Positions 35,501-63,999 of a stretch of DNA of 64,000 bases are shown here, piece after piece. Source of the DNA: Candidatus Babeliales bacterium (GTDB lineage Bacteria > Babelota > Babeliae > Babelales > Chromulinivoraceae); NCBI GenBank assembly GCA_018062405.1, contig JAGOSF010000005.1, positions 34,720 to 98,719 on the forward strand, given 5' to 3'. The position numbers were made by a program, and so were the translations under genes. Under the pieces are notes generated by a model, which was given only the letters and a program-made list of their open reading frames with translations, searched no databases and was not told the origin of the DNA. Each line of letters starts with the position of its first letter. The stretch's first letter is position 1.

Positions 35501-35585
35501 TTCTTCATCGACTCAATCTCGATCTGGATTGCTTGGGCGTTTAGGTTCTAAGATTTCTAAAAAGAAAGATAGAAAAAATAAATAG
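29571..35585 (+). CDS. Very large secreted hypothetical protein (2004 aa)
   Basis: Signal peptide; Ala/Gly-rich N-terminus with a hydrophobic segment; long Ser/Thr/Asn/Gln-rich body; coiled-coil and basic C-terminus. Confidence 0.85.
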   Translation: MSMKSKFSSLVILAVMFLVGTSGFVDAAASVGKVGVTASGKVVSTKIFNTFAGEFGDTAARSFMKSLGKEGVEALSKEGLEVALSAARKSVAVGADDVAKAASMGSLGSSIKALKGIGADFATMTDDVLVKAGQSQGKFVDAIASGNINALESFGMKAGEANKLINLSKSSAGALDNVGGVATKRILPGSADDIGVRLGNGAKVADDAGKVATATEVKVVAGGADNLGGVATKAETIAAEQAAAKAEAQALAGKMASTESKGFGSTAKNAVTKKGLNGSQQGIYVEAKTIATTGRNADGILVSSAEKSAASHLAADLELEASRSALGNFGRRAGAFSAKAVEYSLMTMTAAVLFMIPSIFQSAFLAQQQKNALLQTYIPPTKFGNVVLQLPDSVINIENPSMSQFIYYGIPVNNPGENLSKQAKSLYKGVSNPTSQNKISKHIDNSYAKAFTLGAQKSIHIPRYNLDATAQSTLPIFVSYTDQSWSEWAANGIPDAAFTQTMINLNTGYIFYADGTSQGTLPAPLVGPGTNGKTVESFLSKKYGSLKTTGSQRTYTEYVDSYSSSKAGSIASPLAEQFNCGCLANNGGVLSEETLQTCSSSKSSSCLLTSVLNQLSAGLAINSQGTVMTPDQDMAKEIAQGALGQVIPIQGFGNKFDEVLQMFPGAEQNAIANSGVLTVSLGTNLSAATPVEIIGADPDNYSAKGIYIYQCKNTPLAKMLRSQAGGSSSTAYNNLITDYIVFLDQNLNQVPMMMPMQDPNNYNFITMGLNPAIKYVSTIIGSFDANGAFSFLPQLNIQAPAALVAKGLPASFPPLYGLQAKNGSLAINYNQNLTSVIGTVAQSLASNPKLGQQFKDMQAAMLRLLTSGPFGKYKLSPIDEDMQPIIGGVSLILYTGFHGYPVSQDAKNAKCTDLLIPLSAQGKTVVLPSNNVAEYYGLVTDLTYSVNADGTIVVAENGFANSPLSQQKDASHKVVWSVDAAKTSQFYWVDKLTGMGKKSDPDFAMPASLVDFVTQARSAWLQWIEGASAGQSVNNEFAGITIPGTSNVLTIVGQQALNNGLFVYTCSPNPSTEMQDFFVLTNSTNPTVSDPKLGSMSALSATGSTNMLSLVSGQLYNASGALVQNGPAVDAKALIQSLFSMKPQGFSDDLKAKLNTALSQSTASSQAIVYPFMFGSLQLGIYQADLTAGNYLYLNAAGAGSTANFQPTDYLVCIDSYTSPSVVGTKLSSTTQFMVSLVTGQVYGPTGAQDVIAPSLLSRIIANESPSWRSGQAQDIATLAALAVKVQQNQQQQSAQLEAAPLANDGFVTWPQSAVTTVIASLASQNFLQSPYDMIKQDPTSRSYVMVSPANVDGTAFMYTFFDVPNNFIDAAGNAMRVGAMYDEQGNLLRVVQGVELASLLQQYGVAIDAAGKQYLGANNVLPMMKLDPADVALRPGVSGKSMIYSNDPSFPSFGIVSPISYQNSQFYIYFNKITQSYYAMQVSGSNVSYIDMAGGNVYNLNGQPKMALNPVAINGNGDLFLPYLNPDNFVRCVMKNPANNNYCDFLNLEDGFQAFAQDPATGASCGLNQLVSLDQAANNVNIAQMPFPESLTAMPDLSVANQYNVYVDDASAAISYKVNPAYQWQNLQLLPINMQTRAVLSPLPAAVYQFARLVFKNNVPFACVFANQLFSNAQPSGQNAYTLTAGANKIVVSVLVDSKTNVSYISIAAGSTTYNYQYNFLTLSANQLQDYQQNAWKAQTVADITGRIILEESLPVDDSGNLQLSAVSIKSVVNPPVDAASQSALTASLSNVLVDAANGRFLGQISGSTYAYVPQDGFVDLENGVLFDASGMMLAYTLKAEDLLALLQQLTVSVVRNNNSNASALRYRPAAGAVSAVPVVSKSMSSSMAVGLPVQSSSSLSSLAQASSSVQQSQSAVVNPEIIALQQKNIELQADIKQRQASLNREKVTSRKTALQNAISINKQQIAANNKQIAVLSSSTQSRSGLLGRLGSKISKKKDRKNK

Positions 35586-38885: not shown

Positions 38886-39485
38886 TTACTCTTGGCCGTA
38901 TAATGTTTGACTGTTTTTATCAATAATATCTAATATTTGTTGGCATTGCTCGACCCATTCCTGAGCTGCTTTTTGAGAAATTATAATTTTGCATGCCGGT
39001 TTATATTCTTGCATCCATTTTTGGTAATGCGCTATTTCTTGTTCGTTTTCTTGATTTATACATCGAGGATATGCAGGTGTGATTTCAAAAATGATATGAG
39101 ACTGTTCATCATTATAAATCCATGCTACGTAATCATAGCTTGATAATTCATATTTTTTTCCAATCCAGTAGGTATCGTTATTTTGGTCAGTATATTTTAT
39201 AGAGATAAATGTTGGATCATTTCCCTGTTGATTCCATAGATATCCTATATCTTGACTTATAGAATGATGCAAAGGTAGATTACCAAATAAACTCTTTGTT
39301 AATAATGTTTGTAACGTCAGGAGAAATATCTGTATAGGAAACTCTCCATAGATTTGATAACATTGATTGTGTTTTTTGAAACTTGCATCTCCATCAGAAT
39401 AGGCATTCATTGTTTGAATCGTATCTGAACTAGAAATAATTATATATTGATCTTTTTCCAGTAATAGTTTCAAAAAAACCTTCAC
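38886..39485 (-). CDS. Orphan immunity-like protein, homologue of 52605-53267
   Basis: Shared motifs LHHSISQDIGYLWNQ / IHESIKQNLGFMYNQ, WIYND...IIFEITPAY / WLYND...IIFEVTPLY, EYKP / DYKP. Confidence 0.7.
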   Translation of the reverse strand: MKVFLKLLLEKDQYIIISSSDTIQTMNAYSDGDASFKKHNQCYQIYGEFPIQIFLLTLQTLLTKSLFGNLPLHHSISQDIGYLWNQQGNDPTFISIKYTDQNNDTYWIGKKYELSSYDYVAWIYNDEQSHIIFEITPAYPRCINQENEQEIAHYQKWMQEYKPACKIIISQKAAQEWVEQCQQILDIIDKNSQTLYGQE

Positions 39486-41053: not shown

Positions 41054-44000
41054 ATGATTCTGCCAAGGAGTGTGATGATAGTTTTACAGCGACTTTTATG
41101 CATAATTGCTCTTTTTCTATACGGTAGCTTGGCTCAAGGGGCTGCAAACACTCCAGGTCGACAGGGAAAGCTTTTTGTTCCAGAAAAGACTGCTACAATT
41201 TCAGTTGAACATAAAGATCCAGTTGATCGTAATAAAAATCAGACTGTAAAAACTGAAAGTCGTGGCAAACCTGAAAATTTGTCGGCGCCAGACGCTGTGA
41301 AAGCAAAATCATCAATGGCAATACCAACACGGTCTGAAATAGTAACGAATAGATCAGAATCTAAGGTAAAAGATCCTGCTGTAGAAACAACTTCTAAAAC
41401 TTCTCAGCCAGTAAAAAATTCTGAATCAACTCGATCTTTAGATTTGCGCGAAGGCTTTGGTGAAACAAAATCTTCTGCACAGCCGCAGCCTATTAAAAAA
41501 TCATACTCTATAATCGATCTAAAAAAAATTGAAGCTGATCATCCTGTCCAACGGCTTGAAAAGGGTAAAGAAATTCGTTTTAATGAGCGCATGACAGATC
41601 CAATTGATATATATGTGCAAGCTCTAGAAAAAGCACCACAATATAGAAGTTTAGCAAAGCAAATTCCAGAAATTTTTGCTTCCTATGTTTTAGAGTTTTT
41701 TCAAAAGCAGTCAGGAAATACTGGATTTTTTGGAGGCCTTAAGAGTTTTTTTACAGCTTCTCCTGTTTATAGTCCAGAGCAATTAGTAAGAAGGTCTTAT
41801 GATTGGATAAATTTAACTGATTTTAATGCTGATTTGCCAAATCTTTATATGGGGATGAAAACTTTAAATGGTTTATTTGAATCTAATGTTAAAATTTATG
41901 ACCGTGCTGCAGAAAGCGGTAATCGTTTTATGGACGTTGATATGAATGTTTATGTCGAAGCTTTACGGCCTCAATTTCCTCATGTTCCAAATAAAATTTT
42001 AGAGTTGTATGTTACAACTTTCCTCAATGATCCTGCAAATCAAAAGTATGAACAAAAAAAAGAAGCAAATTTTTTGGGAATAAAAAGAAATGTTAATGAT
42101 CTGACAAAGCCAATAGCAATGACGCCAGAATATATTGCAAGTAAGACTCAAGGAGAGTTGGTTCGTGATAAACTTTCTGGATTAGAAATGCCAATAAAAG
42201 ATAACGTATTAGATGTTGTAGAGTTAAAGAATTTTCAAAAAATATATCTTACGATGAGAGCTATAGAAAATATTAATAGTAGATATCTATCAGAATATCG
42301 ATCAAAAGGTGTTGAAGGTGGGGTTGAATTGCAACCTCAAAAATCATTAGAGAATAAAATAACTGCAGCAATTGCATCTCCTGGATCTGTTGAAAGTTTT
42401 TTCTTGCGATGTGGAATTCCAAAAGAAAAGATGACAACATTCACGACTGAACAAATTAATCGGTCGCGTGATGCATTACAAGAAAATTATCCATCATTTG
42501 AAAGACTGAAAGATCTTACTCTCAAAGATCCTGTAGCATTTGACCAGTTGCAAATTGATTATGTTAATATCAATCAAGATATTATAGCTATAAAAAATAG
42601 ATATGGCTTTTCAAGTGATCAAGTTTTAACAACAATTCAATCTCCTAAAAATATTAGAGATAACGTTCAAAATTTGGTGGTGCAAGCTCAAAATTTAAGT
42701 AGAAATATGAATCAACTTATTGTCGATAGAAAAGTAGCCGATTTTTTTGAAAATTCATTGCCATCAGCAGAAAAAGATTTTTCTTTAGACAATACATTCA
42801 CTGTAACAAAAGAGTTGTTTAAGGATAACGCTTCTCTTCCAGAGTATTTAAAGCAACAGCAAAATCAAATTAGAAGTTCAATTAGTTCTGTTTTAAGTGG
42901 GATTCAGGATAAAATATCAAATTTACACGAGAGTGCGTTGGTTGAAACAACGCTTCCTGATTTGATTGAAAAAGCTGAAGTAGAATTGAAGTCCGCTGAG
43001 AATAATGCTCTAATTTCTGATCAGAGTAAACTCACCTTTCAAATTACAAAAGGATTTGTTGAGCAGTTAAAATTGAATTTAAAACAGCTTGAAACAAGTA
43101 GGAAACAATTAGAACAACAAGCAGAACGTATAATTAGAGAAGAGTTGCCTGATAGTTCATCTTCCCAAGATCGTGGTGCGGTTGTTGTAAAAATGTTAGA
43201 AAAATTAAAGCAATCTTTATCAGATCGTAAAATTTCTTCAGATCGTAAAATTGCTAGTGAAGTTGAAAAATTAGTTGAATTGTATAAAAATGAAGAATTT
43301 GAATATCAAGATATTCCTAAATTGAATCAAAAAATTAGAGAGTTGCTTGAAAAAAATAAAGATAATCAAGCTTTGAAACTTTATAATCAAGTTTTTTCAC
43401 AGTTAGATAGAATATTAGAACCTTATCAAGCATCAATTCAGCGTGAACATAAAGTGAATGCTCAAACGAAGTTGTATGTGGATAATATTTTAGATTCGAA
43501 TGTTTCTATTAACGATGCTATAAAAACTATTGAAAAGAAATTAACGGAATTAAACACAAATAAAGACGTTAATCTTACAAGTGCACAAAATGATTTAAAT
43601 AAAATTTTAGACAACAAGGACCGTGCCTTGCCTGATGGTATATCTAAATTTAGTATAAAAGCTAAAGATAATCTTGGTGATATTTATAATAAAATTTTAA
43701 CTGAGCTTAAAGAGCGTAAAAGAGTGCAAAATGAAGCAAGCTCTGCTTTCCAATTGGGTAATAATCTTTATGGAATTTTTCATAATCTATACGAACTTGA
43801 GGGAAGGCAGGCTGGTTCTCATGCTTTAGGAGCTGGGTGGAATACACCAGGCGCAGCAGTTGAAGTCGCAGGGGTATTGACCACATATGTTGATACTACT
43901 TTGGGTAAGGTAAAAGATAAATTGGATCCAAAAACGTTATTTGCAATTGCGGCAGTTATTACAGCAGTTTCGACAGCTTTAATACAAATTCAACAAAGTA

Positions 44001-44383
44001 ATGGATCTGCAGATGAAAAAAGAAAAATGCAAAATGATGTACTTGGAGCTATGATGGCAGATATTGGAAATTTAGTGATTGCAGATCAGACAGGTGCAAC
44101 TGTTGATGTTGTTGCTTCTGGTGATGCTCAGGCTATAGCAACCAGTGGTTTCTTTAACAAAGCTATTAATATGCTCAATCCAGAGGCTCAAACTAGTTTT
44201 AGTTATGACTCTTCAGTAACAACTCCTGGCTACGTCAGCAATGTGAGTCGATTTCAAAATAAAAATGCTGCAATTCTTCAGAATCAATCATATCCTCAGA
44301 GTAGTAGCAATAATGCTGTGAGTGGTTATAATCGTGCACCAGTAGTTTATAATCCTTATGATTCGTATGAGTATCCTTATTGA
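41054..44383 (+). CDS. Large secreted coiled-coil hypothetical protein (1109 aa)
   Basis: Signal-like N-terminus, low-complexity linker, helical Lys/Glu/Gln body, C-terminal hydrophobic segments. Confidence 0.85.
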   Translation: MILPRSVMIVLQRLLCIIALFLYGSLAQGAANTPGRQGKLFVPEKTATISVEHKDPVDRNKNQTVKTESRGKPENLSAPDAVKAKSSMAIPTRSEIVTNRSESKVKDPAVETTSKTSQPVKNSESTRSLDLREGFGETKSSAQPQPIKKSYSIIDLKKIEADHPVQRLEKGKEIRFNERMTDPIDIYVQALEKAPQYRSLAKQIPEIFASYVLEFFQKQSGNTGFFGGLKSFFTASPVYSPEQLVRRSYDWINLTDFNADLPNLYMGMKTLNGLFESNVKIYDRAAESGNRFMDVDMNVYVEALRPQFPHVPNKILELYVTTFLNDPANQKYEQKKEANFLGIKRNVNDLTKPIAMTPEYIASKTQGELVRDKLSGLEMPIKDNVLDVVELKNFQKIYLTMRAIENINSRYLSEYRSKGVEGGVELQPQKSLENKITAAIASPGSVESFFLRCGIPKEKMTTFTTEQINRSRDALQENYPSFERLKDLTLKDPVAFDQLQIDYVNINQDIIAIKNRYGFSSDQVLTTIQSPKNIRDNVQNLVVQAQNLSRNMNQLIVDRKVADFFENSLPSAEKDFSLDNTFTVTKELFKDNASLPEYLKQQQNQIRSSISSVLSGIQDKISNLHESALVETTLPDLIEKAEVELKSAENNALISDQSKLTFQITKGFVEQLKLNLKQLETSRKQLEQQAERIIREELPDSSSSQDRGAVVVKMLEKLKQSLSDRKISSDRKIASEVEKLVELYKNEEFEYQDIPKLNQKIRELLEKNKDNQALKLYNQVFSQLDRILEPYQASIQREHKVNAQTKLYVDNILDSNVSINDAIKTIEKKLTELNTNKDVNLTSAQNDLNKILDNKDRALPDGISKFSIKAKDNLGDIYNKILTELKERKRVQNEASSAFQLGNNLYGIFHNLYELEGRQAGSHALGAGWNTPGAAVEVAGVLTTYVDTTLGKVKDKLDPKTLFAIAAVITAVSTALIQIQQSNGSADEKRKMQNDVLGAMMADIGNLVIADQTGATVDVVASGDAQAIATSGFFNKAINMLNPEAQTSFSYDSSVTTPGYVSNVSRFQNKNAAILQNQSYPQSSSNNAVSGYNRAPVVYNPYDSYEYPY

Positions 44384-45174: not shown

Positions 45175-45626
45175 GCCCAGTAATCTTTGGTTTGTTCCAA
45201 GATCACTGGGATTTTTTTGGTAAAGAATTGTGAGTTTTTGCCTTGTTTCAAGGATGTTTTATAAATTTTTTGAGAGATTTCTAACATTTCTAATGAGCAT
45301 TGATTTTCTTGAATCGCGATTATAAATTTTCTGCTGTGCATATTGATTTGTAGTTGCACAAAAACTTTTTGTCAGGTATTTATGCATGCAAAATCGATTC
45401 TATAAGCTTTTCTAGGCGTAAGATCGAAAGATAATCACCGGTTTTTGTGCAAATTTTTCACTGACAAATAGAAAGAATTGTTTTTTTGATCGTGACAAAA
45501 AATAAAATTCAGATTAAAATCGCATCATTGATCTATAGCTTATTTTCGAGCTTTTCTTTTTGACTTTGTTTGGAAATAGGTTCACCTTGAATTAATAATA
45601 ATTTTTTAAACAAGGTGGATTTTCGT

Positions 45627-48581
45627 ATGAATTTTGTATGGATGTTATTATTTTCAATATTTGTTTCTTCTTCTCTTTTTTCGTATGATCAATCGTATAA
45701 TAGGTTTGTCATACAATCAAATTTTATGCATCCATTTAGCTCTGATCAATCAACAGGCTTGTCTTCCTCTTTAACAAATCCAGCAGATGTATCGACAAGT
45801 ACGGTGATGGCATCGATAAATCCAATGATGCACATAGGTGTTGCTAACTATGGCGCTGGATATACTCAGGATTTGCAGCGCCATTATGAAAATCACGCAA
45901 AAGCTCATTTCTTAAAAAATCAAAAATATGCTTCGACTGGTTTTTCGCTCGAAGAGAAATTACGTAGGTTGCCAAAGAGAACGACATTTCCTTTTCAGGC
46001 TGCTTATAACAAAGATGGGATGGTCGCAACAAATAAGCATGGTGATCTATTAGATAATAAGGGTAATAGATGGGTTTTAAGCCCTGATGGAACAGAATGG
46101 GAAATAAGTAATAAATCAAGACAATTATTAAAAAAAGAAAAAGCTAACATTCCAGATTCAAAGAAAACAGATTTTGTAGAAACACCTCAAAATAGTAGAA
46201 CTATAGCTGTTATGGAATCGATGTTGTCGGCAATCGTCTTGGCAAATACAAACTTTTATGAGGCAAATTTTGATGGAATGTCAGCTGATTTTTTTACCAC
46301 ATTTCAGGAGTTGCAAAATAGTTCATTGAATCATGAAGAACGTAGTGTTCTTACGAGTAAGCTTAATTTTCAGATGATGCATCATTTAGTGAAAACTGGT
46401 CAGATACATCGTGGAATTATTAAAAAATATGAAAAACATCCATGGGCAATCCATAAAGATCTGACCGAGGCTGATTTTTCAGAACAATGCATGGCTAATT
46501 TTATGCTTGATTCGATGGCCTTTGCAGAAAATGATACAACTATAGAAATTGCACAAGCTGGATTGCGTGAATGGACAGATGGTATTCAATCGAAGACAGA
46601 AGAAGAATATTTGTATCATATGAATCGATCGAATCAATATTATGGGTCTTTGCGAAAGCAGTTACCGACTCACTCAATTACAGATTATGCTCAACCGATG
46701 GATCAAACCATTGCCATGATAGATGATTTTTTTGAAAAATATGCAGCGACAGTAAAAGAGTATTATAAAGATGCAATCGGAGAATTAAGTGATCTTGAAC
46801 AAGAACATTTACATAGAATTGAAAAGCGTTTAGATGCTTTAGAAAAATCAAAAAAACAGGTGAGACCTGAAAATCGTGTGCAACAAACGTATGCAATGAG
46901 CCCTTGCGCACAAGCTTTTTTTATGGAGCACAATTTAAATTATGCAGCATTCAATGGTGGTGTTGTTACCGATTTTCAACATTGTTTAACACAAGAAGTT
47001 TTAGGAATTATAGAATCGTCAGTTGAAATGGTTCGTTCTCATCATTATGAATCGATGATAAAGAATTTTACGATACATAATTGCCAGCTTGCAGTGTCTG
47101 GACAGCAATTGAATCAGTTAGCTCGGTTAAATGAAGCTGTAGCAGTCATTGATTATAGTCATTTTTTTGAAAATATTGCGCGGTTTATCTATGGCGATAA
47201 ATTGTATGGAGCTATGGACATTGGGGCGGCTAAATCATTAGATAAATGGATGGTGTTTGCCTATAAGTTAGGATCTGATCCAAAGGCAACGGTTAAAGAT
47301 TTAGCAGAAGATTGTTTGCGTATGGGTGAGGGTTTGTGTTTTGTTGCAAATTTTGTTCACGATGTAACTCCATTGCGCTACGTTACTGACTTGGCACGAG
47401 AACTGGTATCAGATCCATCTGAAGATGAGTCGGTTCAATTTGCAAGAATTGTGAAAAGGGATGAAGAACGGACAGAACGAAGTAGAAAAACAATTAAGGC
47501 TGGTTTGGTTGCAGCAGATAACATTATTAAAGGAATTGTAAAAAAATCTGTACATGAAAATTTGGTTGATGCCTCGGAATTTGTTTGCGATCTTGTGTTG
47601 ACTGATAAAATCACCCAAGGCTTTTTTAAATTAGCCCATTTTGTAGGTAAATCTGCATTGCAAGCAGGTAACGCAATGCAAAATATGTTACCACCAGAAT
47701 TGATGGATAGTTCTCTTAAACTTTCAACCAATGCAGGTGAAGTTGTTGCTGTTTTTGCTGAAACAGGAGAAACTGTTAGTTCAGTTGCAGCGGCTGCGCA
47801 AGCTGCAGAACGTATCACTCAGATTGCGGGTAATGTTACGCGAGCAAAAGATCTATTGGATGGGTTAAAGGATTTGTTGCAACCTGATCCAGAAAAGCTT
47901 ACTGAATTTCAAAAAACGATTGAGCCTTATTTGCGACAAGATAAACTGGTTAATGTTGATCGATTGCGTTCGATAGAAGGAGTTGATCAGGTTCAGAGAT
48001 TTAAAGATTATACAAACAATTTTCATCCAGATGAGCTTGCAAAATTAAAACCAGAAGAGATTTTGTATCTTAATTTGTGTGATTGGCTTGCACCGAAAGC
48101 AGATATAATTAATGCGGCTTTAAAGAAAAAAGGTGGTATAAGAATTGTCGATTCTGTAACAGGGGTTGAAGCCTATTATGAAAAATATGATTTGTTTCAT
48201 TCTTTGCTTGGTGAAATGTCTCCAGGTGCAGTAGCAAATAGAACTAGCGGAGGTCATTTGATGATTCCAGAATTGAGAGGAGCTACGCTTAAAACTGGCA
48301 AGGTTATACCAATTGGTCATGGCTTTTTTGATATCGATATTCAGTATTTAGGTAAAGAATCTGCTAATTATAAAAAGAATTCAGTTTATCCTTTGGGGAC
48401 ATTGCTAGAGGAGTCTGTAGAAATGCTAGAAAAAGCTACTGAAATATGTACAGAAATTAGTATTGAAATTAATCCTAAAAATTCTTTACAGCAAATTGTA
48501 AAAATAAAAAATAAAAATAGTCAAAGCTTTTACATAAGAATTGAAAATAAAATCGCTGAATTTTATCCAGGAAATATATAA
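45627..48581 (+). CDS. Full-length polymorphic toxin: signal peptide, unknown delivery region, EndoU-like nuclease C-terminus
   Basis: MNFVWMLLFSIFVSSSLFS signal. C-terminus FHSLLGE...SGGHL...KKNSVYPLG...EESVEMLEKA...EFYP fits the bacterial EndoU toxin pattern. Followed by a small immunity-like gene and homologous cassettes. Confidence 0.8.
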   Translation: MNFVWMLLFSIFVSSSLFSYDQSYNRFVIQSNFMHPFSSDQSTGLSSSLTNPADVSTSTVMASINPMMHIGVANYGAGYTQDLQRHYENHAKAHFLKNQKYASTGFSLEEKLRRLPKRTTFPFQAAYNKDGMVATNKHGDLLDNKGNRWVLSPDGTEWEISNKSRQLLKKEKANIPDSKKTDFVETPQNSRTIAVMESMLSAIVLANTNFYEANFDGMSADFFTTFQELQNSSLNHEERSVLTSKLNFQMMHHLVKTGQIHRGIIKKYEKHPWAIHKDLTEADFSEQCMANFMLDSMAFAENDTTIEIAQAGLREWTDGIQSKTEEEYLYHMNRSNQYYGSLRKQLPTHSITDYAQPMDQTIAMIDDFFEKYAATVKEYYKDAIGELSDLEQEHLHRIEKRLDALEKSKKQVRPENRVQQTYAMSPCAQAFFMEHNLNYAAFNGGVVTDFQHCLTQEVLGIIESSVEMVRSHHYESMIKNFTIHNCQLAVSGQQLNQLARLNEAVAVIDYSHFFENIARFIYGDKLYGAMDIGAAKSLDKWMVFAYKLGSDPKATVKDLAEDCLRMGEGLCFVANFVHDVTPLRYVTDLARELVSDPSEDESVQFARIVKRDEERTERSRKTIKAGLVAADNIIKGIVKKSVHENLVDASEFVCDLVLTDKITQGFFKLAHFVGKSALQAGNAMQNMLPPELMDSSLKLSTNAGEVVAVFAETGETVSSVAAAAQAAERITQIAGNVTRAKDLLDGLKDLLQPDPEKLTEFQKTIEPYLRQDKLVNVDRLRSIEGVDQVQRFKDYTNNFHPDELAKLKPEEILYLNLCDWLAPKADIINAALKKKGGIRIVDSVTGVEAYYEKYDLFHSLLGEMSPGAVANRTSGGHLMIPELRGATLKTGKVIPIGHGFFDIDIQYLGKESANYKKNSVYPLGTLLEESVEMLEKATEICTEISIEINPKNSLQQIVKIKNKNSQSFYIRIENKIAEFYPGNI

Positions 48582-48592
48582 GGAAATTTGTA

Positions 48593-49117
48593 ATGATTAT
48601 AAAAAAATATCAAACATATAAATATAAAACTATAAGTTATTTTGTAGTTGAGCGATTTGGAGAAGATATGTTTTATTTACATATGTTTTTATTAAATTGT
48701 TTTGGATATTTAAGAAGAAAGAATAATTTAGAGTTTAAAGAAGAAATAAAAACTATTTGTGAATATGGTATGACGTTTGATAATGCCGAGATTAGTATAG
48801 ATAATGAAAATAATATTGTATATGTTATTGAAAGCTTTTATGACTATCGTAGTAGGCCAAAAACGCCAAAAATAGAAGAATTACTTGAAACAGAAAATTT
48901 TATAGAGCTTTGTAAAATGGGCTTTTTAAATTATATAACAATGACAAGAGATAATTTTATGCATTTGTTGTTAACTTGGAATAAAATTTTAGATCAATTA
49001 CCACCATTTGCTTTGTTGTACCAAGATGATAAAGATTGGTATGATATATTGTCATTCGACTCAAAAGAGGCTATGGATAAGTTTTTAGCTGATCACACAA
49101 AAAAAGAAACAAATTGA
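48593..49117 (+). CDS. Immunity protein 1 (cognate to the full-length toxin)
   Basis: Starts 11 bp after the toxin stop; paralogous to 50130-50657 and 51398-51940. Confidence 0.75.
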   Translation: MIIKKYQTYKYKTISYFVVERFGEDMFYLHMFLLNCFGYLRRKNNLEFKEEIKTICEYGMTFDNAEISIDNENNIVYVIESFYDYRSRPKTPKIEELLETENFIELCKMGFLNYITMTRDNFMHLLLTWNKILDQLPPFALLYQDDKDWYDILSFDSKEAMDKFLADHTKKETN

Positions 49118-49134
49118 AAAAATAAGATTTTAGT

Positions 49135-49170
49135 AAGGCACATTCCTTTTAATTGGGTGTGCCTTTTTTT
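49135..49170 (+). terminator. Cassette-boundary terminator 1
   Basis: AAGGCACATTCC-N-GGGTGTGCCTTTTTTT. Confidence 0.75.
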
Positions 49171-49178
49171 GTGCCTCT

Positions 49179-50115
49179 TTTTGTAGGTGAATCTGCATTG
49201 CAAGCAGGTAACGCAATGCAAAATATGTTACCACCAGAATTGATGAATAGTTCTCTTAAATTTTCAACCAATGCTGGCGAAGTTGTTGCTGTTTTTGCCG
49301 AAACTGGAGAAACTGTTGGTTCAGTTGCAGCGGCTGCACAAGCTGCAGAACGTATCACTCAGATTGCGGGTAATGTTACGCGAGCAAAAGATCTATTGGA
49401 TGAGTTAAAGGATTTGTTGCAACCAGATCCAGACAAGCTTACTGAATTTCAAAAATCTATTGAGCCTTATTTACGACAGGATAAACTTGTTGATGTTGAT
49501 AGTTTACGATCAATCGAAGGAGTTGAACAGGTTCAAAAATTTAAAGATTATACAAACAATTTTCATCCAGATGAGCTTGCAAAATTAAAACCAGAAGAGA
49601 TTTTGTATCTTAACTTGTGTGACTGGCTTGCACCAAAAGCAGAAATAATTAACGAGGCGTTAAAGAAAAAAGGTGGTATAACAATTATAGACCCAAAAAC
49701 AAAGAAAATTTTAGCTCATTATGAAAAGTATGATCTATTTCATTCTTTGCTTGGAGAAATGAAACCAAAGTTTATGAATAATGTTGTAAAAGGTGGACAT
49801 TTACCTATTTTAGAATTAAAAGGAGCTCTCTTTGAAATTAGCGAGATTAAACCTTTGGGAAATGGATTTTTTGATATGACAATTAAGCGAGGAAGTAATC
49901 GTAAAAAAAACTCTTTTTTTCCACTTGGAACGTCTATAGAAGAATCTGTTGCTATAATAGAAGATGCAATAATAAATTGTGAAAAAATTGAAATAGTTGT
50001 ATTGAAAGATAAGGCATTGCAAGGGTTTCATGTTGTAAATAAAAGAAATCAACAGTTTATGCTTGTGTTAAATAAGAATGAGTTACAGTTTTATCCTTCT
50101 AATATTCAGTTGTAA
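49179..50115 (+). CDS. Silent toxin C-terminal cassette 2 (alternative EndoU-like domain)
   Basis: ~500 bp near-identical to 47639-48140, then divergent FHSLLGE...KGGHL...KKNSFFPLG...FYP; no signal peptide or clear RBS. Confidence 0.8.
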
Positions 50116-50129
50116 ATGATGAGAAGATT

Positions 50130-50657
50130 ATGATTATTAAAAGTTACGAGATTTTTGTTTTAAGCTTTGATGATTTTTCGAATGTAAATATTGATTTAAT
50201 TACAAGTTCAATAAATAATACTTACTATTTAAGAATGTTTTTAGTTTATTCTTTTGGGGATGTTAGAAGAGATAATATTTTAAATTCTATAGAGAAAATA
50301 GATGATTTTTTTCAGGATGGAATATCTTTCGATTTTGTTGATATAAGTATTGATAACAATGCTAATTTAGTTTATTTAAGTGAGTCTTGGTATGATTATA
50401 AAGATAAACCAACTACCGATGAAATAGAAAAATTATTGGAAGATGCAAATTTTATAGAACTTTGTAAAATGGGGTTTCTTGATTACGCAGTTATGACAAG
50501 AGACAATTTTATTCATTTGTTATTAACGTGGAATAAGATTTTAGATCAATTGCCATCATTTGCGTTGTTGTATCAAGATGATAAAGATTGGTATAATATA
50601 GTGCCATTTGATTCAAAAGAGGCTATGGATCAATTTATAGTTGATCATGTAAAATAA
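50130..50657 (+). CDS. Immunity protein 2
   Basis: Follows cassette 2; C-terminal half nearly identical to immunity 1 (NFIELCKMGFL...DNFxHLLLTWNKILDQLP). Confidence 0.75.
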   Translation: MIIKSYEIFVLSFDDFSNVNIDLITSSINNTYYLRMFLVYSFGDVRRDNILNSIEKIDDFFQDGISFDFVDISIDNNANLVYLSESWYDYKDKPTTDEIEKLLEDANFIELCKMGFLDYAVMTRDNFIHLLLTWNKILDQLPSFALLYQDDKDWYNIVPFDSKEAMDQFIVDHVK

Positions 50658-50687
50658 AAAAATAAAAAATATTGCAGACTTTAGTAT

Positions 50688-50719
50688 AAGGCACAATTCA
50701 TTCGGTTGATTGTGCCTTT
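50688..50719 (+). terminator. Cassette-boundary terminator 2
   Basis: AAGGCACAATTC-N-GATTGTGCCTTT. Confidence 0.7.
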
Positions 50720-51390
50720 GAGCCTTATTTGCGACAAGATAAACTTGTTGATGTTGATCGATTACGATCAATCGAAGGAGTTGATCAGGTTCAGAGATTT
50801 AAAGATTATACAAACAATTTTCATCCAGATGAGCTTGCAAAATTAAAACCAGAAGAGATTTTGTATCTTAATTTGTGTGATTGGCTTGCACCGAAAGCAG
50901 ATATAATTAATGCGGCTTTAAAGAAAAAAGGAGGTATAAGAATTGTCGATTCTGTAACTGGGGTTGAAGCCTATTATGAAAAATATGATTTGTTTCATTC
51001 TTTGCTTGGTGAAATGTCTCCAGGTGCAGTAGCAAATAGAACTAGCGGAGGTCATTTGATGATTCCAGAATTGCGAGGAGCTATACTTAAAACTGGCAAG
51101 GTTACTCCAATTGGGCATGGGTTTTTTGATATCGATATTCAGTATTTAGGTAAAGAATCTGCTAAGTGTAAGACGAATTCAGTATATCCTCTGGGGACAT
51201 TGCTTGAAGAATCTGTGGAGCTGTTAGAAAAAACTCAGGAAAATTTTAAAGAAATAATCTGTGTTATAGATAAAAGTGGAAAAGCAGATGTTATGATAGA
51301 AGGAAAATTAGGTGAATTTTTGGTATGTTTATTAAAGATAATGAAGCAAAATTTTTTCCAATGAATCCATCAGCAAAATTAAGGAAGTAA
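50718..51390 (+). pseudogene. Silent toxin cassette 3 (EndoU-like, one-base frameshift near the 3' end)
   Basis: ~510 bp near-identical to 47920-48430. Adding one T to the T5 run at 51317-51321 restores ...GEFFGMFIKDNEAKFFPMNPSAKLRK* ending at 51390, just before immunity 3. Confidence 0.75.
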
Positions 51391-51397
51391 GGAAGTT

Positions 51398-51940
51398 ATG
51401 AATATTAAACAATATAAAAAATTTGAATTTCAAATTGCGTTGCAAGTTGAGTTTCAAATTGTACGTTATTCTTTATTAGAAAGGAAATCATCATATGATT
51501 ATCCAATTTCATATATAGAAATATTTTTTTCTGATGGTTTTCCTTACGTTAATCGGTATGGAGTTAAAGATTTTATAAAAGAACGTACAGAAGGAATGAT
51601 GTTTGAAAGAATTGAGCTTCATATTGATAATGAACATAATGTAGCTTATATTCATGAGCCAATAGATTTTTCTAGATCAGATATTACTCCTGAAGTTCAT
51701 CAATTAATAGAAAATGATGATATTGTAAAACTTTGTAAAATGGGATTTTTGGGATATACAGTTATGACAAAAGATAATTTATTTCATCTTTTGTTGTTGT
51801 GGGGAGAGTTTGTAGATAAAAAGGCTCCCTATATTTTAATTTATTTGGATGATAAAGATTACTATGATACGTTATCATTCGATTCAAAAGAATCTATGGA
51901 TAAATTTGTAGCTGAGCATACAAAAAAAGAAACAAATTGA
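51398..51940 (+). CDS. Immunity protein 3
   Basis: Same family (LCKMGFLGYTVMTKDNLFHLLLLW...FDSKESMDKF). Confidence 0.75.
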   Translation: MNIKQYKKFEFQIALQVEFQIVRYSLLERKSSYDYPISYIEIFFSDGFPYVNRYGVKDFIKERTEGMMFERIELHIDNEHNVAYIHEPIDFSRSDITPEVHQLIENDDIVKLCKMGFLGYTVMTKDNLFHLLLLWGEFVDKKAPYILIYLDDKDYYDTLSFDSKESMDKFVAEHTKKETN

Positions 51941-51957
51941 AAAAATAAGATTTTAGT

Positions 51958-51993
51958 AAGGCACATTCCATTTAATTGGGTGTGTCTTTTTTT
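51958..51993 (+). terminator. Cassette-boundary terminator 3
   Basis: AAGGCACATTCC-N-GGGTGTGTCTTTTTTT, copy of terminator 1. Confidence 0.75.
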
Positions 51994-52002
51994 GTAGCCT
52001 CT

Positions 52003-52608
52003 TTTTGTAGGTGAATCTGCATTGCAAGCAGGTAACGCAATGCAAAATATGTTACCACCAGAATTGATGGACAGTTCTCTTAAACTTTCGACCAATGCAG
52101 GGGAAGTTGTTGCTGTTTTTGCCGAAACTGGAGAAACTGTTGATTGTGTGATGGCATCAAAAGCCTCTATGGATCGATTTGCTAAAAACACAGGTAAAGG
52201 AGCTGGCGCGAAGCGTGCTCTTGACCCATTTGATGATACCTTGAATTCTGAACCAAAAAAAGGTACCCCAGAATGGGATAAAAAATATCCGAATGGGAAA
52301 TATGAAGGTGCTGATTATCATCGTGAGTAGGCTAAATTAAAGGAAGATTTTAAAGGGAAGTCTAAAAAAAGCCCTGCTCCTCAAGATGGTCAAGCTGCTT
52401 TAGATCGTTCATTAGAAGTTGAAGGTTCTCGTCATAGAATTACAATCGAAGATGACAAAATTGTAATTTTAAGATATGAAGGAAATGATATTTACCATGG
52501 ATATATTGTTGAAGATTTTCATTCCATAAAAGATGTTAAAATTTTAAGCACGGTTTAGTTAATAGTGGTTTGGTAAAAGATATGAAATCAGGAAAGATAG
52601 TAAAATGA
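52003..52608 (+). pseudogene. Silent toxin cassette 4 (non-EndoU toxin domain; in-frame stop plus frameshift)
   Basis: ~139 bp junction homologous to 47639-47778. Then YEGADYH...KSPAPQDGQAALDRS...YHGYI, with TAG at 52328-52330 and a frameshift at ~52540-52555. The repaired frame ends in a TGA overlapping the ATG of 52605. Confidence 0.75.
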
Positions 52609-53267
52609 AAGAATTGATTTTAAAATTAACTGAAATTGAGTCTATAAAAATTGTTTCAGATTCTGATGTTGATTTTGCAAAAGTTGATTATTGTTGTGGA
52701 GAGCTTGTAGCTTATTTTGTTTATAACAATAATGAATTCATTATAGGGCAAGCTTCAGCAGGGGATTTATGTGAAAATTTTATTGCAAGATTGCAAAAAA
52801 ATTTAAAGAATGAATTGCAGATACATGAATCAATAAAGCAAAACTTAGGTTTTATGTATAATCAGTATTGCCATCAGTTGCCACTTCTATCATCTGAATT
52901 TGTTAAGATTTTATCAAAAAGTGGCGAGTCTTCTTATTGGGTAGGATTAGATTATGATGTTTGGTCAACTTATATATCTACAAAGTCAATGTTGACAACT
53001 TGGTTATATAATGATGATAAAGGTAATATTATTTTTGAAGTGACGCCTTTATATCAATGGTCATTTTTACCAGATGAACCAGAAGATCCAGATTTTCAAA
53101 CTTATGAAGAATTCATGAAAGATTATAAGCCATTAATTACGAGAGTTATACCTCGCCAAGTTGCTATCGAATGGTTGGGTCAAGTCATGAAAGTTTATCG
53201 AGGACTATTTTCAACTGAAGAAAATTATAAAAATATGTGCAAAGAATTAGGCTGGGAAGATTGTTAG
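52605..53267 (+). CDS. Immunity protein 4 (different family)
   Basis: ATGA-coupled to the cassette 4 toxin; homologous to 38886-39485. Confidence 0.75.
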   Translation: MKELILKLTEIESIKIVSDSDVDFAKVDYCCGELVAYFVYNNNEFIIGQASAGDLCENFIARLQKNLKNELQIHESIKQNLGFMYNQYCHQLPLLSSEFVKILSKSGESSYWVGLDYDVWSTYISTKSMLTTWLYNDDKGNIIFEVTPLYQWSFLPDEPEDPDFQTYEEFMKDYKPLITRVIPRQVAIEWLGQVMKVYRGLFSTEENYKNMCKELGWEDC

Positions 53268-53275
53268 AAACTGTT

Positions 53276-53320
53276 AAAAGGCAGTGCGCAATTACCTATG
53301 AATTGCGCACTGCCTTTTTT
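53276..53320. terminator. Bidirectional terminator closing the array
   Basis: AAAAGGCAGTGCGCAATT-ACCTATG-AATTGCGCACTGCCTTTTTT. Confidence 0.85.
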
Positions 53321-53326
53321 ACGAAA

Positions 53327-53737
53327 TTAAAATCCTTGGCCATCATCATCTTCTGGATTGTCAGAAATTAAAACTCCTAGCATATCCTTGATGTGGTTTC
53401 GATTGAAGTAGGTTAAAGCACCTTGTTTTTTATGAGAAGGTTGATCGTTTGGATTTTTGCAAGGATCAGATTCAAATTTAAAAACGTTTGTTTCGAATTG
53501 CCCAGATTTATGCATAAGCCGAGCTCCAATCCATTGTTCACCATTGATTTGTCCAGCCCATGGACGAATCGAAAGCCCATATTTTTGTAATACTGGATAG
53601 ACTGGTTTTAAAATACCATACAAATCTGCATACTCATTTTTAAATGCTTTACGATTAACTCGAATCGTTGGAAACTCAACTTGCGCCTGAGCTAACGCTG
53701 TGTATAATTGGTCTTTTTCTACCGACTCTAACATCAT
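53327..53737 (-). CDS. ERF-family single-strand DNA annealing protein (136 aa)
   Basis: LYTALAQAQVEF...FKNEYADL...PVLQKYGL...RLMHKSGQF...GALTYFNR...LGV...EDDDG matches the ERF/Rad52-like recombinase pattern. Confidence 0.8.
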   Translation of the reverse strand: MMLESVEKDQLYTALAQAQVEFPTIRVNRKAFKNEYADLYGILKPVYPVLQKYGLSIRPWAGQINGEQWIGARLMHKSGQFETNVFKFESDPCKNPNDQPSHKKQGALTYFNRNHIKDMLGVLISDNPEDDDGQGF

Positions 53738-62175: not shown

Positions 62176-63117
62176 CTAACTCATGTTTACCGTATTGTGT
62201 TTGTATTCCTTTATAAATGTTCGAGCCTGCTCATGAGTATCAAATCCGTGGCATTTAATCCAATCATTTTCCTCGCGATAGACAAGTGCCCAACAATATC
62301 TACTTTGCATTGTTATCCATGATTCTATTAATTCTTTATAATTTTCATATGGCATTTGCAATGTATTATTTTTATTAACATATTCAGGAATTTTATCTCT
62401 TTCTGGCATGCGCTTTGTTTTAGAGCTATCAGCCCATTCAAAAGCACCAATATGAATCAGATCTTTTTCTTTATTGTGATATATGTATTCTTCGAATATA
62501 TAACTTGGTTTTAATAAAAGATCTCCTGGTGGATAGTTTTGTGCAAAAAACTGTTGTAAGTAATATAATAAAGATGTTGCATTGTGAAATTCAATCTCAA
62601 AACATCCATGAGCTGGCTTATGCAACAATAAACATTCTTTTATTTTCCGCTGGACTTTCTCAATATCAAAAGCATAATCAGCATCTTGATATTTTTTAAT
62701 AATTATCGGATCAGTTTCTAAAGAAACATGATTGTCTTCATGAATAACTATTAAAATAATATCTGGCTTACTCACTCGTAATTTTTCCCATTCAAATACA
62801 ATTTCTGTAAAATTTTTAACCGACATTTCAAAACATTTTTCAGGATCAAGATAATCTCCTGTATAAGTCTCATCAATCGAATTTGAAACATCATATAAAG
62901 CTATAACACCTCTTTCTTTATTGATGGAAACCCAGTCACTACTTCTCATCGTTTTTGTCTCATCCATCAACCAATCAATAAGTTCTCCTGGTCTAAAATT
63001 ATTACTTAATATTTTTGACACGGGAAAAAAACGCCAATCATTTGAAATTTTATTTAAAGCTTTAAAAGTATATACGTTATACTTTATATTTTTTTGCATT
63101 ATTACACATAACTTCAT
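62176..63117 (-). CDS. Two-domain immunity-like protein (313 aa)
   Basis: Starts 3 bp after the toxin stop. The C-terminal half (MPYENYKELIESW...ALVYREENDW...FDTHEQARTFI) aligns by eye with immunities 1-3. Confidence 0.7.
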   Translation of the reverse strand: MKLCVIMQKNIKYNVYTFKALNKISNDWRFFPVSKILSNNFRPGELIDWLMDETKTMRSSDWVSINKERGVIALYDVSNSIDETYTGDYLDPEKCFEMSVKNFTEIVFEWEKLRVSKPDIILIVIHEDNHVSLETDPIIIKKYQDADYAFDIEKVQRKIKECLLLHKPAHGCFEIEFHNATSLLYYLQQFFAQNYPPGDLLLKPSYIFEEYIYHNKEKDLIHIGAFEWADSSKTKRMPERDKIPEYVNKNNTLQMPYENYKELIESWITMQSRYCWALVYREENDWIKCHGFDTHEQARTFIKEYKHNTVNMS

Positions 63118-63120
63118 AAT

Positions 63121-63999
63121 TTATTTCTCAAAATTTTTTGAGCTTGGATAAGCTGATTTAATCATATTTTTTAAATTAATAATCATTTCTATAAATAACC
63201 CATTCGGAGCTTGACACAACAATTCTTTATTAGGATCACCAACCTCAGTCAAATCATCAATTATATTTTGAGATGCTTCAAAAATAATTTGAGCTGTTTC
63301 TTTTCGCGACCAACTTGGAGAAAAAAATGTTTTTCCTTTGCATATTATTCCATTACCAAAGTCTACATCTGCCATAAAACAATCTTTGCCCTCTACCCTA
63401 TTAATAAACTTACATAATCCAGATTTTTCCAAAGCCTCCAATTCATCGTGATGAAAACCATTTAAATGGATTTCTTTTATTGTCTGATTTGTAACATCCA
63501 ATTTAACTTGCAAGCTTGGATAAAAAATATGACGCATTTGCATCGTTAAATATTTATTTTCACCACTAAATTCTTCTAATCCCAAATATTTATCTTTAAA
63601 TAATGTCTGGAGTCGTTGAATGTCATCGGTAATATATTGTGGTACGATTGATAACTCCTGACATGTATTAAAAAGATCAATTACTTCTGGTAAAGCTTGA
63701 TTGTTCATCAACTTATCATATTGATTTGCAGTGTTTTTAAACATGAGTTCTTCATATTTTTGATTCATAGCTTTAATAACATTTTTACCAGTCTCTGTTT
63801 TTGCAAAATTTTTTGATAAAGTTTCTTTTGATACTTGATAAATTGAATTTACACCATTTTTAACGACATCACTTCCAGATTGTAAAAATATTTTGGCGAA
63901 AAGTGATTGTCCTGCTGAATTGATTAAGCCAGGTTCTGTGCCAGTAATTGCAGGCACTGGTTTTGGGTTCCAACCAGTACCAACCAAGTTTCTTTGTGG
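63121..63999 (-). CDS. EndoU-like toxin C-terminal region (frame open to the window edge)
   Basis: RHIFY...NGFHH...KGKTFFSPSWSRKETAQIIFEA...NGLFI...IKSAYP; no stop between 63987 and 64000. Confidence 0.8.
   Translation of the reverse strand, partial: PQRNLVGTGWNPKPVPAITGTEPGLINSAGQSLFAKIFLQSGSDVVKNGVNSIYQVSKETLSKNFAKTETGKNVIKAMNQKYEELMFKNTANQYDKLMNNQALPEVIDLFNTCQELSIVPQYITDDIQRLQTLFKDKYLGLEEFSGENKYLTMQMRHIFYPSLQVKLDVTNQTIKEIHLNGFHHDELEALEKSGLCKFINRVEGKDCFMADVDFGNGIICKGKTFFSPSWSRKETAQIIFEASQNIIDDLTEVGDPNKELLCQAPNGLFIEMIINLKNMIKSAYPSSKNFEK

Follow-up and report, generated by a model that had tools for sequence, protein, structure and literature searches.

Members of the Dependentiae (TM6; order Babeliales) are obligate intracellular parasites of protists, and the biology of this widespread, almost uncultured phylum, with genomes of about 1 Mb, has mostly been deduced from gene content. 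One such genome, that of a Candidatus Babeliales bacterium (assembly GCA_018062405.1, here G000; 1.23 Mb in 14 contigs, 94.6% complete), raises the question of what purpose an array of toxin gene pieces serves in an organism of this kind. The stretch of 64,000 nucleotides (nt) analysed here, referred to as the window (contig C3, positions 34720-98719; GC content 29-38%), contains a gene for a signal-peptide protein of 984 amino acids (aa) with a toxin-like C-terminal tip. It is followed by a small gene, by three headless cassettes, each a piece of the toxin gene with a small gene of its own, and by a gene for an Erf-type single-strand annealing protein (ERF). Are the cassettes a working store of alternative toxins, the residue of past exchanges, or debris, and at whom would the toxin be directed? 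We present evidence that this is very probably a polymorphic toxin/immunity locus of a Babeliales-specific class with a Sec signal, and that its downstream modules are displaced orphans.

The gene order and direct repeats of the locus were reproduced by a listing of open reading frames (ORFs), a repeat search and self-BLAST (Table 1). Comparisons were drawn with two genomes of the same genus (G001 and G002), 11 sister-genus genomes and 261 Babeliales genomes, and with metagenomic relatives (locus L087, from GCA_041294345.1, and L088/L089). With the toxin as query, no related locus was found among genome contigs, and no encoding contig is on record for the exact 984-aa protein; an Rfam search of the 40-56 kb part of the window gave no match. 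An earlier note, made from the sequence alone, had described the 984-aa signal-peptide toxin with its downstream immunity-like gene, the three headless cassettes and the ERF gene as a polymorphic toxin system with orphan C-terminal/immunity modules, and in these respects its account is borne out by the results below.

Table 1. Positions of the features of the locus within the window
Feature	Position	Strand	Basis or remark
Conserved leader (~350 bp) upstream of toxin gene	45234..45585	+	86-96% identical copies, promoter scan
Predicted full-length polymorphic toxin, 984 aa	45627..48581	+	ORF listing, profile searches, core model
Immunity-like gene 1, immA family, 174 aa	48593..49117	+	Begins 11 nt past toxin stop
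Terminator-like hairpin GGCACA...TGTGCC + U7, ends module 1	49135..49170	+	-15.1 kcal/mol, z = -2.1
Orphan cassette 1	49179..50115	+	Arm identity, ORF
Immunity-like gene 2, immA family, 175 aa	50130..50657	+	
Orphan cassette 2	50718..51390	+	Arm identity, frame analysis
Immunity-like gene 3, immA family, 180 aa	51398..51940	+	
Orphan cassette 3	51995..52608	+	Arm identity, tip homology
Immunity-like gene 4, immB family, 220 aa	52605..53267	+	Start overlaps cassette 3 stop (ATGA)
Strong bidirectional terminator hairpin between immunity-like gene 4 and ERF	53276..53318	.	-29.8 kcal/mol, z = -9.1; inverted self-match
Small Erf-type single-strand annealing protein gene, 136 aa	53327..53737	-	Pfam ERF, PHROG
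Lone immB-family homologue, no adjoining toxin, outside array	38886..39485	-	Homology search
Separate EndoU-type toxin, 3' end	63121-63999 (leaves window)	-	Homology search
Two-part partner of separate EndoU toxin, 313 aa, immA-related C-terminal part	62176-63117	-	

The toxin gene and its modules

The ORF listing extends the toxin gene upstream to a GTG at 45615 (988 aa). The true start is most likely the ATG at 45627, because the sequence AAGGTGG sits 8 nt upstream; the stop is at 48581. The N-terminus, MNFVWMLLFSIFVSSSLFS, is signal-peptide-like and typical of a Sec signal, and is followed by a variable N-region, a conserved all-helical core (~nt 46467-47780), a pre-toxin linker and a divergent domain of apparent EndoU type (~nt 48198-48578). 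Searches of the 988-aa protein against Pfam and NCBIfam returned no family at E<=1, and thus no TPS, FHA, RHS, LXG, MuF, MafB or PT-VENN domain was detected. A profile of the core (residues 285-722, ~440 aa), run exhaustively against 1.84 billion representative proteins, matched 143 in total, 38 of them below 1e-30. Signal-peptide-like starts were found in all seven members of the body family that were inspected, and distant members terminate in EndoU (50, 33 and 23 bits) or Ntox35 (34 bits) domains, one of them bearing the name 'EndoU domain-containing protein [Candidatus Babeliales bacterium]'. Among the 261 Babeliales genomes, the full core occurs in three, all of the genus of G000, and a core sub-module of ~180 aa occurs in 28, from 17 genera. 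An AlphaFold2 model of the core, built from 45 sequences (predicted local distance difference test, pLDDT, 79 overall and >90 for residues 1-240), is all-helical with a long helical hairpin at its end and has no significant fold match in PDB or BFVD. The carrier body is a lineage-specific domain, confined to Babeliales and previously undescribed; the earlier note had called it unrecognised, and by Pfam it is indeed not that of CdiA, Rhs, MafB, LXG or MuF. A tipless paralogue of the body, 600 aa with a signal peptide, is encoded near a contig end at C14:88-1890 (-) and stops just past the core.

The tip of the window's toxin matches EndoU_bacteria (PF14436) with E=0.065 and 14 bits, under the cut-off of 25.3, over profile positions 7-128 of 129. 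The orthologous tip of G002 passes the same cut-off at 27.2 bits, the family is matched by 5 of 10 aligned family tips from G000 and its two congeners, and the motifs H..LGE, GGH and K-x-[ST]-F-F-P are conserved in an alignment of 34 sequences (H80 and GGH97-99). Two other toxins of G000 also score above the cut-off (C1:46574, 36 bits; C5:92064, 26.7 bits); a profile of EndoU tips found no match among PDB sequences. The label EndoU-like, as given in the earlier note, therefore suits the tip family, with the window's own copy lying below threshold, and this tip is predicted to be a divergent EndoU-type RNase.

The tip of cassette 3 is a separate domain, homologous to the CdiA toxin domain of PDB entry 5T87. 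When a profile of five tips of this type was run against PDB, it recovered chain 5T87_E (E = 4.7e-11, 46 bits), the alignment covering residues 1-71 of a chain of 76. The window's copy of the tip is a pseudogene. This structure is the CdiA-CT/CdiI complex of Cupriavidus taiwanensis, its toxin domain being listed as CDD cd20695 (PMC9111745). Among the database relatives of the 5T87-type tip, one has a pre-toxin HINT domain (PT-HINT) and one is source-named 'filamentous hemagglutinin'. Because of the EndoU family matches and the 5T87 and PT-HINT relatives, both tip types are regarded as bona fide polymorphic-toxin warheads.

Self-BLAST showed that each cassette opens with a DNA arm from the full-length gene: 49179-49761 corresponds to 47639-48218 (90% identity), 50718-51255 to 47920-48457 (93%, and 98-100% across ~300 nt) and 51995-52141 to 47632-47777 (94.6%). 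Cassette 1 begins within the body (…FVGESALQAG) and has an intact pre-toxin region and an EndoU-type tip of another subtype; no signal peptide, recognisable promoter or ribosome-binding site was seen on inspection of this cassette. Cassette 2 begins at …EPYLRQDKL, differs from the full gene in its last subdomain, and is broken by a frameshift at a T-run near 51318, such that the family-typical end …AKFFPMNPSAKLRK lies in another frame, with a stop at 51388-51390, 7 nt before immunity-like gene 3. Cassette 3 consists of a 147-nt arm, in the same register as the start of cassette 1, and the 5T87-type tip; relative to an intact copy on contig C12, it has decayed through an in-frame TAG (52328-52330) and a 3' frameshift. 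Neither these lesions nor the non-EndoU nature of the third tip had been noticed in the earlier note. Recoding of the TAG was considered and rejected, the C12 paralogue having a sense codon at that place and cassette 3 being frameshifted as well. A hairpin with U7 closes modules 1 and 3, the hairpin of module 2 stands directly against the following cassette, and module 4 is closed by the bidirectional terminator common to immunity-like gene 4 and the convergent ERF gene. These hairpins were found by direct folding, a generic terminator scan having overlooked them owing to the length of their loops.

A small ORF follows each toxin piece within 4-14 nt, frameshifts allowed for, and all four such ORFs of the array are intact. 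They belong to two families, immA (168-198 aa; genes 1-3) and immB (205-220 aa; gene 4), for which no Pfam, NCBIfam or PDB relative was found; the only source-named database homologue of immA bears the name Dependentiae. EndoU-type tips are accompanied by immA, and 5T87-type tips by immB, with no exception among the loci compared: those of the window, of contigs C12 and C1, of G001 and G002, and the metagenomic L087 and L088. This position, coupling and co-variation with the tip suggest an immunity role, and the gene 11 nt downstream of the toxin probably encodes its cognate immunity protein. A tblastn census of G000 returned at least 12 EndoU-type and four 5T87-type tips (at least 16 in all), together with ~25 immA-like and ~9 immB-like genes (about 35 immunity-like genes). 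Lone immunity-like genes are found at C11:1768, C13:12957 and C7:6967 and in the window itself, at 38886-39485, where the gene lies directly behind a cell-division gene cluster and shares 26-39% identity with the immB genes of arrays. Since cassettes 2 and 3 have decayed and all four immunity ORFs have not, the array is best read as a set of displaced orphans retained for immunity and not as a silent store.

Exchange of toxin tips

A second full-length toxin gene, on contig C12, points to the exchange of tips upon a common body. Across the leader and the first ~720 codons it has 95.7% nucleotide identity to the window gene, as far as the equivalent of window position 47777 (…VVAVFAETGET), beyond which the gene continues into a cassette-3-type tip and immB. 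The switch point is exactly where cassettes 1 and 3 diverge from the window gene. The C12 array also has, beyond its tip and immB, a further orphan cassette and immB gene. Sliding identity comparisons reveal a mosaic. Identity is 90-100% in the 5' arms, falls to 45-65% across the toxin core and the first half of the immunity gene, and is 77-100% in the second half of that gene and its terminator. Such a pattern is to be expected where a diversifying specificity core is flanked by recombining sequences, and the juxtaposition of arm stretches of 98-100% with cores of 45-65% implies recent gene conversion and diversifying cores.

The metagenomic relatives offer a natural before/after view of tip displacement. 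L087 and L088/L089 have common flanks, with HSP70, AMMECR1, YchF and MscS upstream and an FtsH-type M41 peptidase downstream. L088/L089 contains a body with an EndoU tip and immA, whereas in L087 the body ends in a 5T87-type tip with immB; behind these come a headless EndoU piece, immA and a fragment of immA, the former tip having persisted as an orphan. Proteins P0040 and P0045 represent alternative tips on the same body at the syntenic site. The headless piece of L087, P0022 (14258-14944), is a chimera that runs from the C-terminal half of a tip of 5T87 type into an EndoU module, and its junction, …ILKYE joined to EILYLNLCDW, is a microhomology join, which speaks for such joining in the course of tip replacement. 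Different tips on one N-terminus, a comparison of strains to which the earlier note had pointed, are thus seen both in the C12 paralogue and in related genomes. Toxin islands also lie at different chromosomal sites in sister species, because the orthologous toxin locus of G001 (L090, G001:C1 ~1,008,000-1,016,000) is situated between genes whose G000 orthologues adjoin at C2:4999-7166, a site that is toxin-free in G000.

The locus and its relatives therefore present the features by which polymorphic toxin systems are recognised: alternative C-terminal toxin domains on a conserved N-terminal region (window versus C12, P0040 versus P0045, and the distant EndoU and Ntox35 members), an adjacent downstream gene that co-varies with the tip and is presumed to confer immunity, and orphan tip/immunity cassettes with a stretch homologous to the full gene. 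In the mechanism that we propose, the gene at 45627-48581 would be the expressed one, with its signal peptide, ~700-aa body, pre-toxin linker, EndoU-type tip and downstream cognate immunity gene, and the three downstream modules would be former or alternative tips, displaced by incoming tip-plus-immunity modules. Recombination would take place through two arms: on the 5' side, either the last part of the body or the pre-toxin stretch, and on the 3' side, the conserved second half of the immunity gene together with its terminator; RecA-dependent recombination with occasional microhomology joins would be sufficient. Orphan toxin pieces, without promoter or signal peptide, are in decay, and orphan immunity genes would probably be kept as protection from the same toxin types of neighbouring cells. 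The toxin itself may be exported by Sec, released by vesicles or a secretin system, and used on co-infecting Dependentiae within the same protist, its helical body perhaps providing uptake in a bacteriocin-like manner.

Recombinase, target and delivery

The earlier note went further in calling the cassette array silent and in suggesting that ERF is possibly the system's own recombinase. By its matches, the ERF gene does encode the core of an Erf-type annealase (Pfam ERF PF04404, 26.6 bits against a cut-off of 25; phrog_2324, Erf-like, 68 bits, E = 1.5e-18). Programmed switching, with ERF catalysing RecA-independent exchange of stored cassettes via short arms, might be supposed from its place 60 nt past the last module, from the arm lengths of 147-580 nt, and from the microhomology chimera P0022 in a relative. 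The distribution of the gene, however, speaks against it. ERF was sought in the congeners G001 and G002, which have toxin loci and orphan cassettes, and is absent from both; it is present in a single copy in G000, where the arrays on C12, C1 and C5 have no ERF nearby. Conversely, one orthologue each (~150 aa, ~35% identity) occurs in 7 of the 11 sister-genus genomes, none of which has a full-length toxin body (five have a distant match to the sub-module), and in the three of these whose ERF surroundings were inspected, no toxin or immunity gene is a neighbour and the gene is not near murD. RecA is encoded in G000, and two of the three cassettes are broken. We therefore consider programmed switching extremely improbable and reject ERF as part of the toxin system on distribution and synteny; the gene is most likely a bystander whose position beside the array is coincidental.

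Two further explanations assign the genes a different role, or none. The modules could be non-functional debris, the decayed tandem duplications of a toxin-antitoxin-like pair, with orphans that have no present role; cassettes 2 and 3 are pseudogenes, and pseudogenes do build up in small reduced genomes. This is very unlikely in view of the four intact immunity ORFs, of arms nearly identical beside cores that are not, and of the recurrence of the same architecture in several loci, species and metagenomes. Alternatively, the toxins could be host-directed effectors, such that Sec-exported EndoU and CdiA-CT-like RNases degrade or reprogramme protist RNA, the arrays are by-products of duplication, and the partner proteins shield the producer before export, much as barstar protects a producer of barnase. 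The lineage is obligately intracellular, no T6SS (type VI secretion system), TpsB or other interbacterial delivery system was found, ~44% of the coding sequences of Chromulinavorax have signal peptides, and Deeg et al. place endoU among the nucleases that degrade host polymers (PMC6561590). In that paper endoU figures solely as a cytoplasmic endonuclease, and rec and ruv pathways are described as well (PMC6561590). On the other hand, many of the immA-like and immB-like genes of G000 are lone or tandem copies without a cognate toxin, and orphan immunity genes are intact where orphan toxins decay, both of which are predicted by protection from non-self toxins and not by self-protection alone; moreover, one tip family is common to CdiA toxins, which act between bacteria. 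We thus regard host-directed effectors as unlikely.

Because of these lone and retained immunity genes, we favour a toxin aimed at rival bacteria that share the host cell, a likely assignment although well short of a firm one, and give a host target a low, appreciable probability. Several points nevertheless weigh against the interbacterial toxin locus as we read it. The window's main tip scores only 14 bits against the EndoU family, and its AlphaFold2 model, from a 10-sequence alignment, was poor (pLDDT 51) and was not used for a fold search. The frameshift of cassette 2 lies in a homopolymer and is possibly an assembly error. No apparatus for entry into another bacterium was identified, and an obligate intracellular life limits contact between bacteria, which makes a host target possible. 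The earlier note had seen no CdiB or T6SS partner in the window; from the genome as a whole, TpsB/ShlB/CdiB (PF03865) and the T6SS sheath TssC/VipB (PF05943) are absent, and two secretins are encoded in it. We suggest, with considerable doubt, that the body could be a self-contained, Sec-dependent platform for delivery into rival Dependentiae that operates without T5, T6 or T7 machinery, in which case the ~35 immunity-like genes in 1.23 Mb would record intense warfare between parasites in host cells. At least 16 tips and about 35 immunity-like genes in a genome of this size imply that conflict ranks among the major forces of selection, despite the reduced state of this intracellular genome. 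That conflict is most likely one between co-infecting bacteria, and the locus makes available for study new toxin/immunity pairs of compact size, along with what may be a new uptake module.

Known systems and related loci

The architecture of the locus is that of the Maf, CDI (contact-dependent inhibition) and Rhs orphan-cassette systems, and no new principle is involved. The MafB/MafI proteins of pathogenic Neisseria reportedly form a class with a signal peptide and a lineage-specific N-domain. They resemble the window's toxin in the N-terminal Sec signal, the lineage-restricted conserved body and the variable C-terminal toxin, as well as in the immunity gene directly downstream and in orphan C-terminal/immunity cassettes that share a 5' stretch of homology with the full gene. 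They differ in that the window toxin and an upstream 196-aa ORF have no Pfam family, with no DUF1020/MafB N-domain and no recognisable MafA, and in that the Babeliales body is all-helical, without a Pfam, PDB or BFVD relative, and belongs to an obligately intracellular phylum, the Dependentiae. The CDI system (CdiB/CdiA/CdiI) likewise has modular tips, cognate immunity genes and displaced orphan modules that keep a conserved piece, and one tip family of the window is homologous to the C. taiwanensis CdiA-CT (5T87_E); EndoU tips, too, are known from CdiA. In contrast to CdiA, however, the window toxin has no TPS domain, FHA repeats or VENN motif, is shorter than a typical CdiA by about a thousand residues, and is encoded in a genome without CdiB/TpsB.

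The remaining carriers of such toxins are more distant. Unlike Rhs/YD proteins and T6SS effectors, the window toxin has no corresponding Pfam match and no DPxGL motif, and TssC/VipB is missing from the genome; unlike LXG effectors of the type VII secretion system (T7SS) and MuF toxins, it has no Pfam match at E<=1 and no PDB or BFVD fold match, the genome not having been searched separately for T7SS genes. Nuclease colicins and S-type pyocins are likewise soluble toxins in which a long helical body carries a nuclease at its C-terminus, and their immunity genes are tightly linked to them, whereas colicins have no signal peptide or orphan arrays, and no similarity of sequence or fold to the window body was detected. 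This resemblance may serve as a working model for uptake, by way of functional speculation. For obligate intracellular bacteria, cryptic contact-dependent-like toxin/antidote modules have been described in Rickettsia (Verhoeve et al. 2022, PMC9111745) and polymorphic-toxin-like systems in a Bodo saltans endosymbiont (PMC8163844), so that the earlier note overstated the case in calling such a system unusual for an intracellular lineage. Those modules include 5T87-type CdiA-CT domains and lie at recombination hotspots, with rapid birth and death, as here; they differ in belonging to Alphaproteobacteria and having other carriers, and no multi-cassette arrays on a dedicated Sec-signal body are described there. 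Our literature search found no paper linking Dependentiae with polymorphic toxins. What is new is the carrier domain and both immunity families, all undescribed, in a phylum for which no published description was found.

The leader upstream of the toxin gene is common to different body classes, namely the 984-aa family and a 481-aa protein on contig C1, and copies 86-96% identical to it lie upstream of toxin genes at C12:105277, C1:76032-76385 and C1:78803-79142. Of the promoter-like sites in the region, the best (GTGACA-17-TAAAAT, 45492-45520) lies in this leader. The C1 and C12 copies also have a short palindrome, GTACAAAAAATTGTAC, of which the window has a variant. The leader may be a shared regulatory region of toxin expression sites. 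The C1 locus (76417-80475) encodes the 481-aa signal-peptide protein, which has an unidentified tip, followed by two small genes of ~125-130 aa. Within the same locus, a second leader with the first ~22 codons is fused out of frame to the C-terminal part of the gene, which has a 5T87-type tip and is accompanied by immB; this second copy looks like an internal-deletion derivative.

A further array, at C5:89289-97428, is built on a different body of 1213 aa, with two downstream copies of ~420-456 aa that keep a long shared stretch, and its copies have immunity genes of their own (153, 310 and 155 aa). Some 8-12 kb away, at C5:74239-81303, is a cluster that encodes two secretins and has PilM/N-like genes; the orthologous cluster of G001 likewise has an EndoU toxin within a few kb (locus L093). 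Upstream of the toxin island in the window are two genes for signal-peptide proteins of 1109 aa (41054-44383) and 2004 aa (29571-35585) with no family match, the 1109-aa protein having also found none in NCBIfam. Finally, the separate pair at the end of the window, an EndoU toxin with its long immunity-like partner (62176-63999), has four more copies on C1 and C5, which are 35-77% identical.

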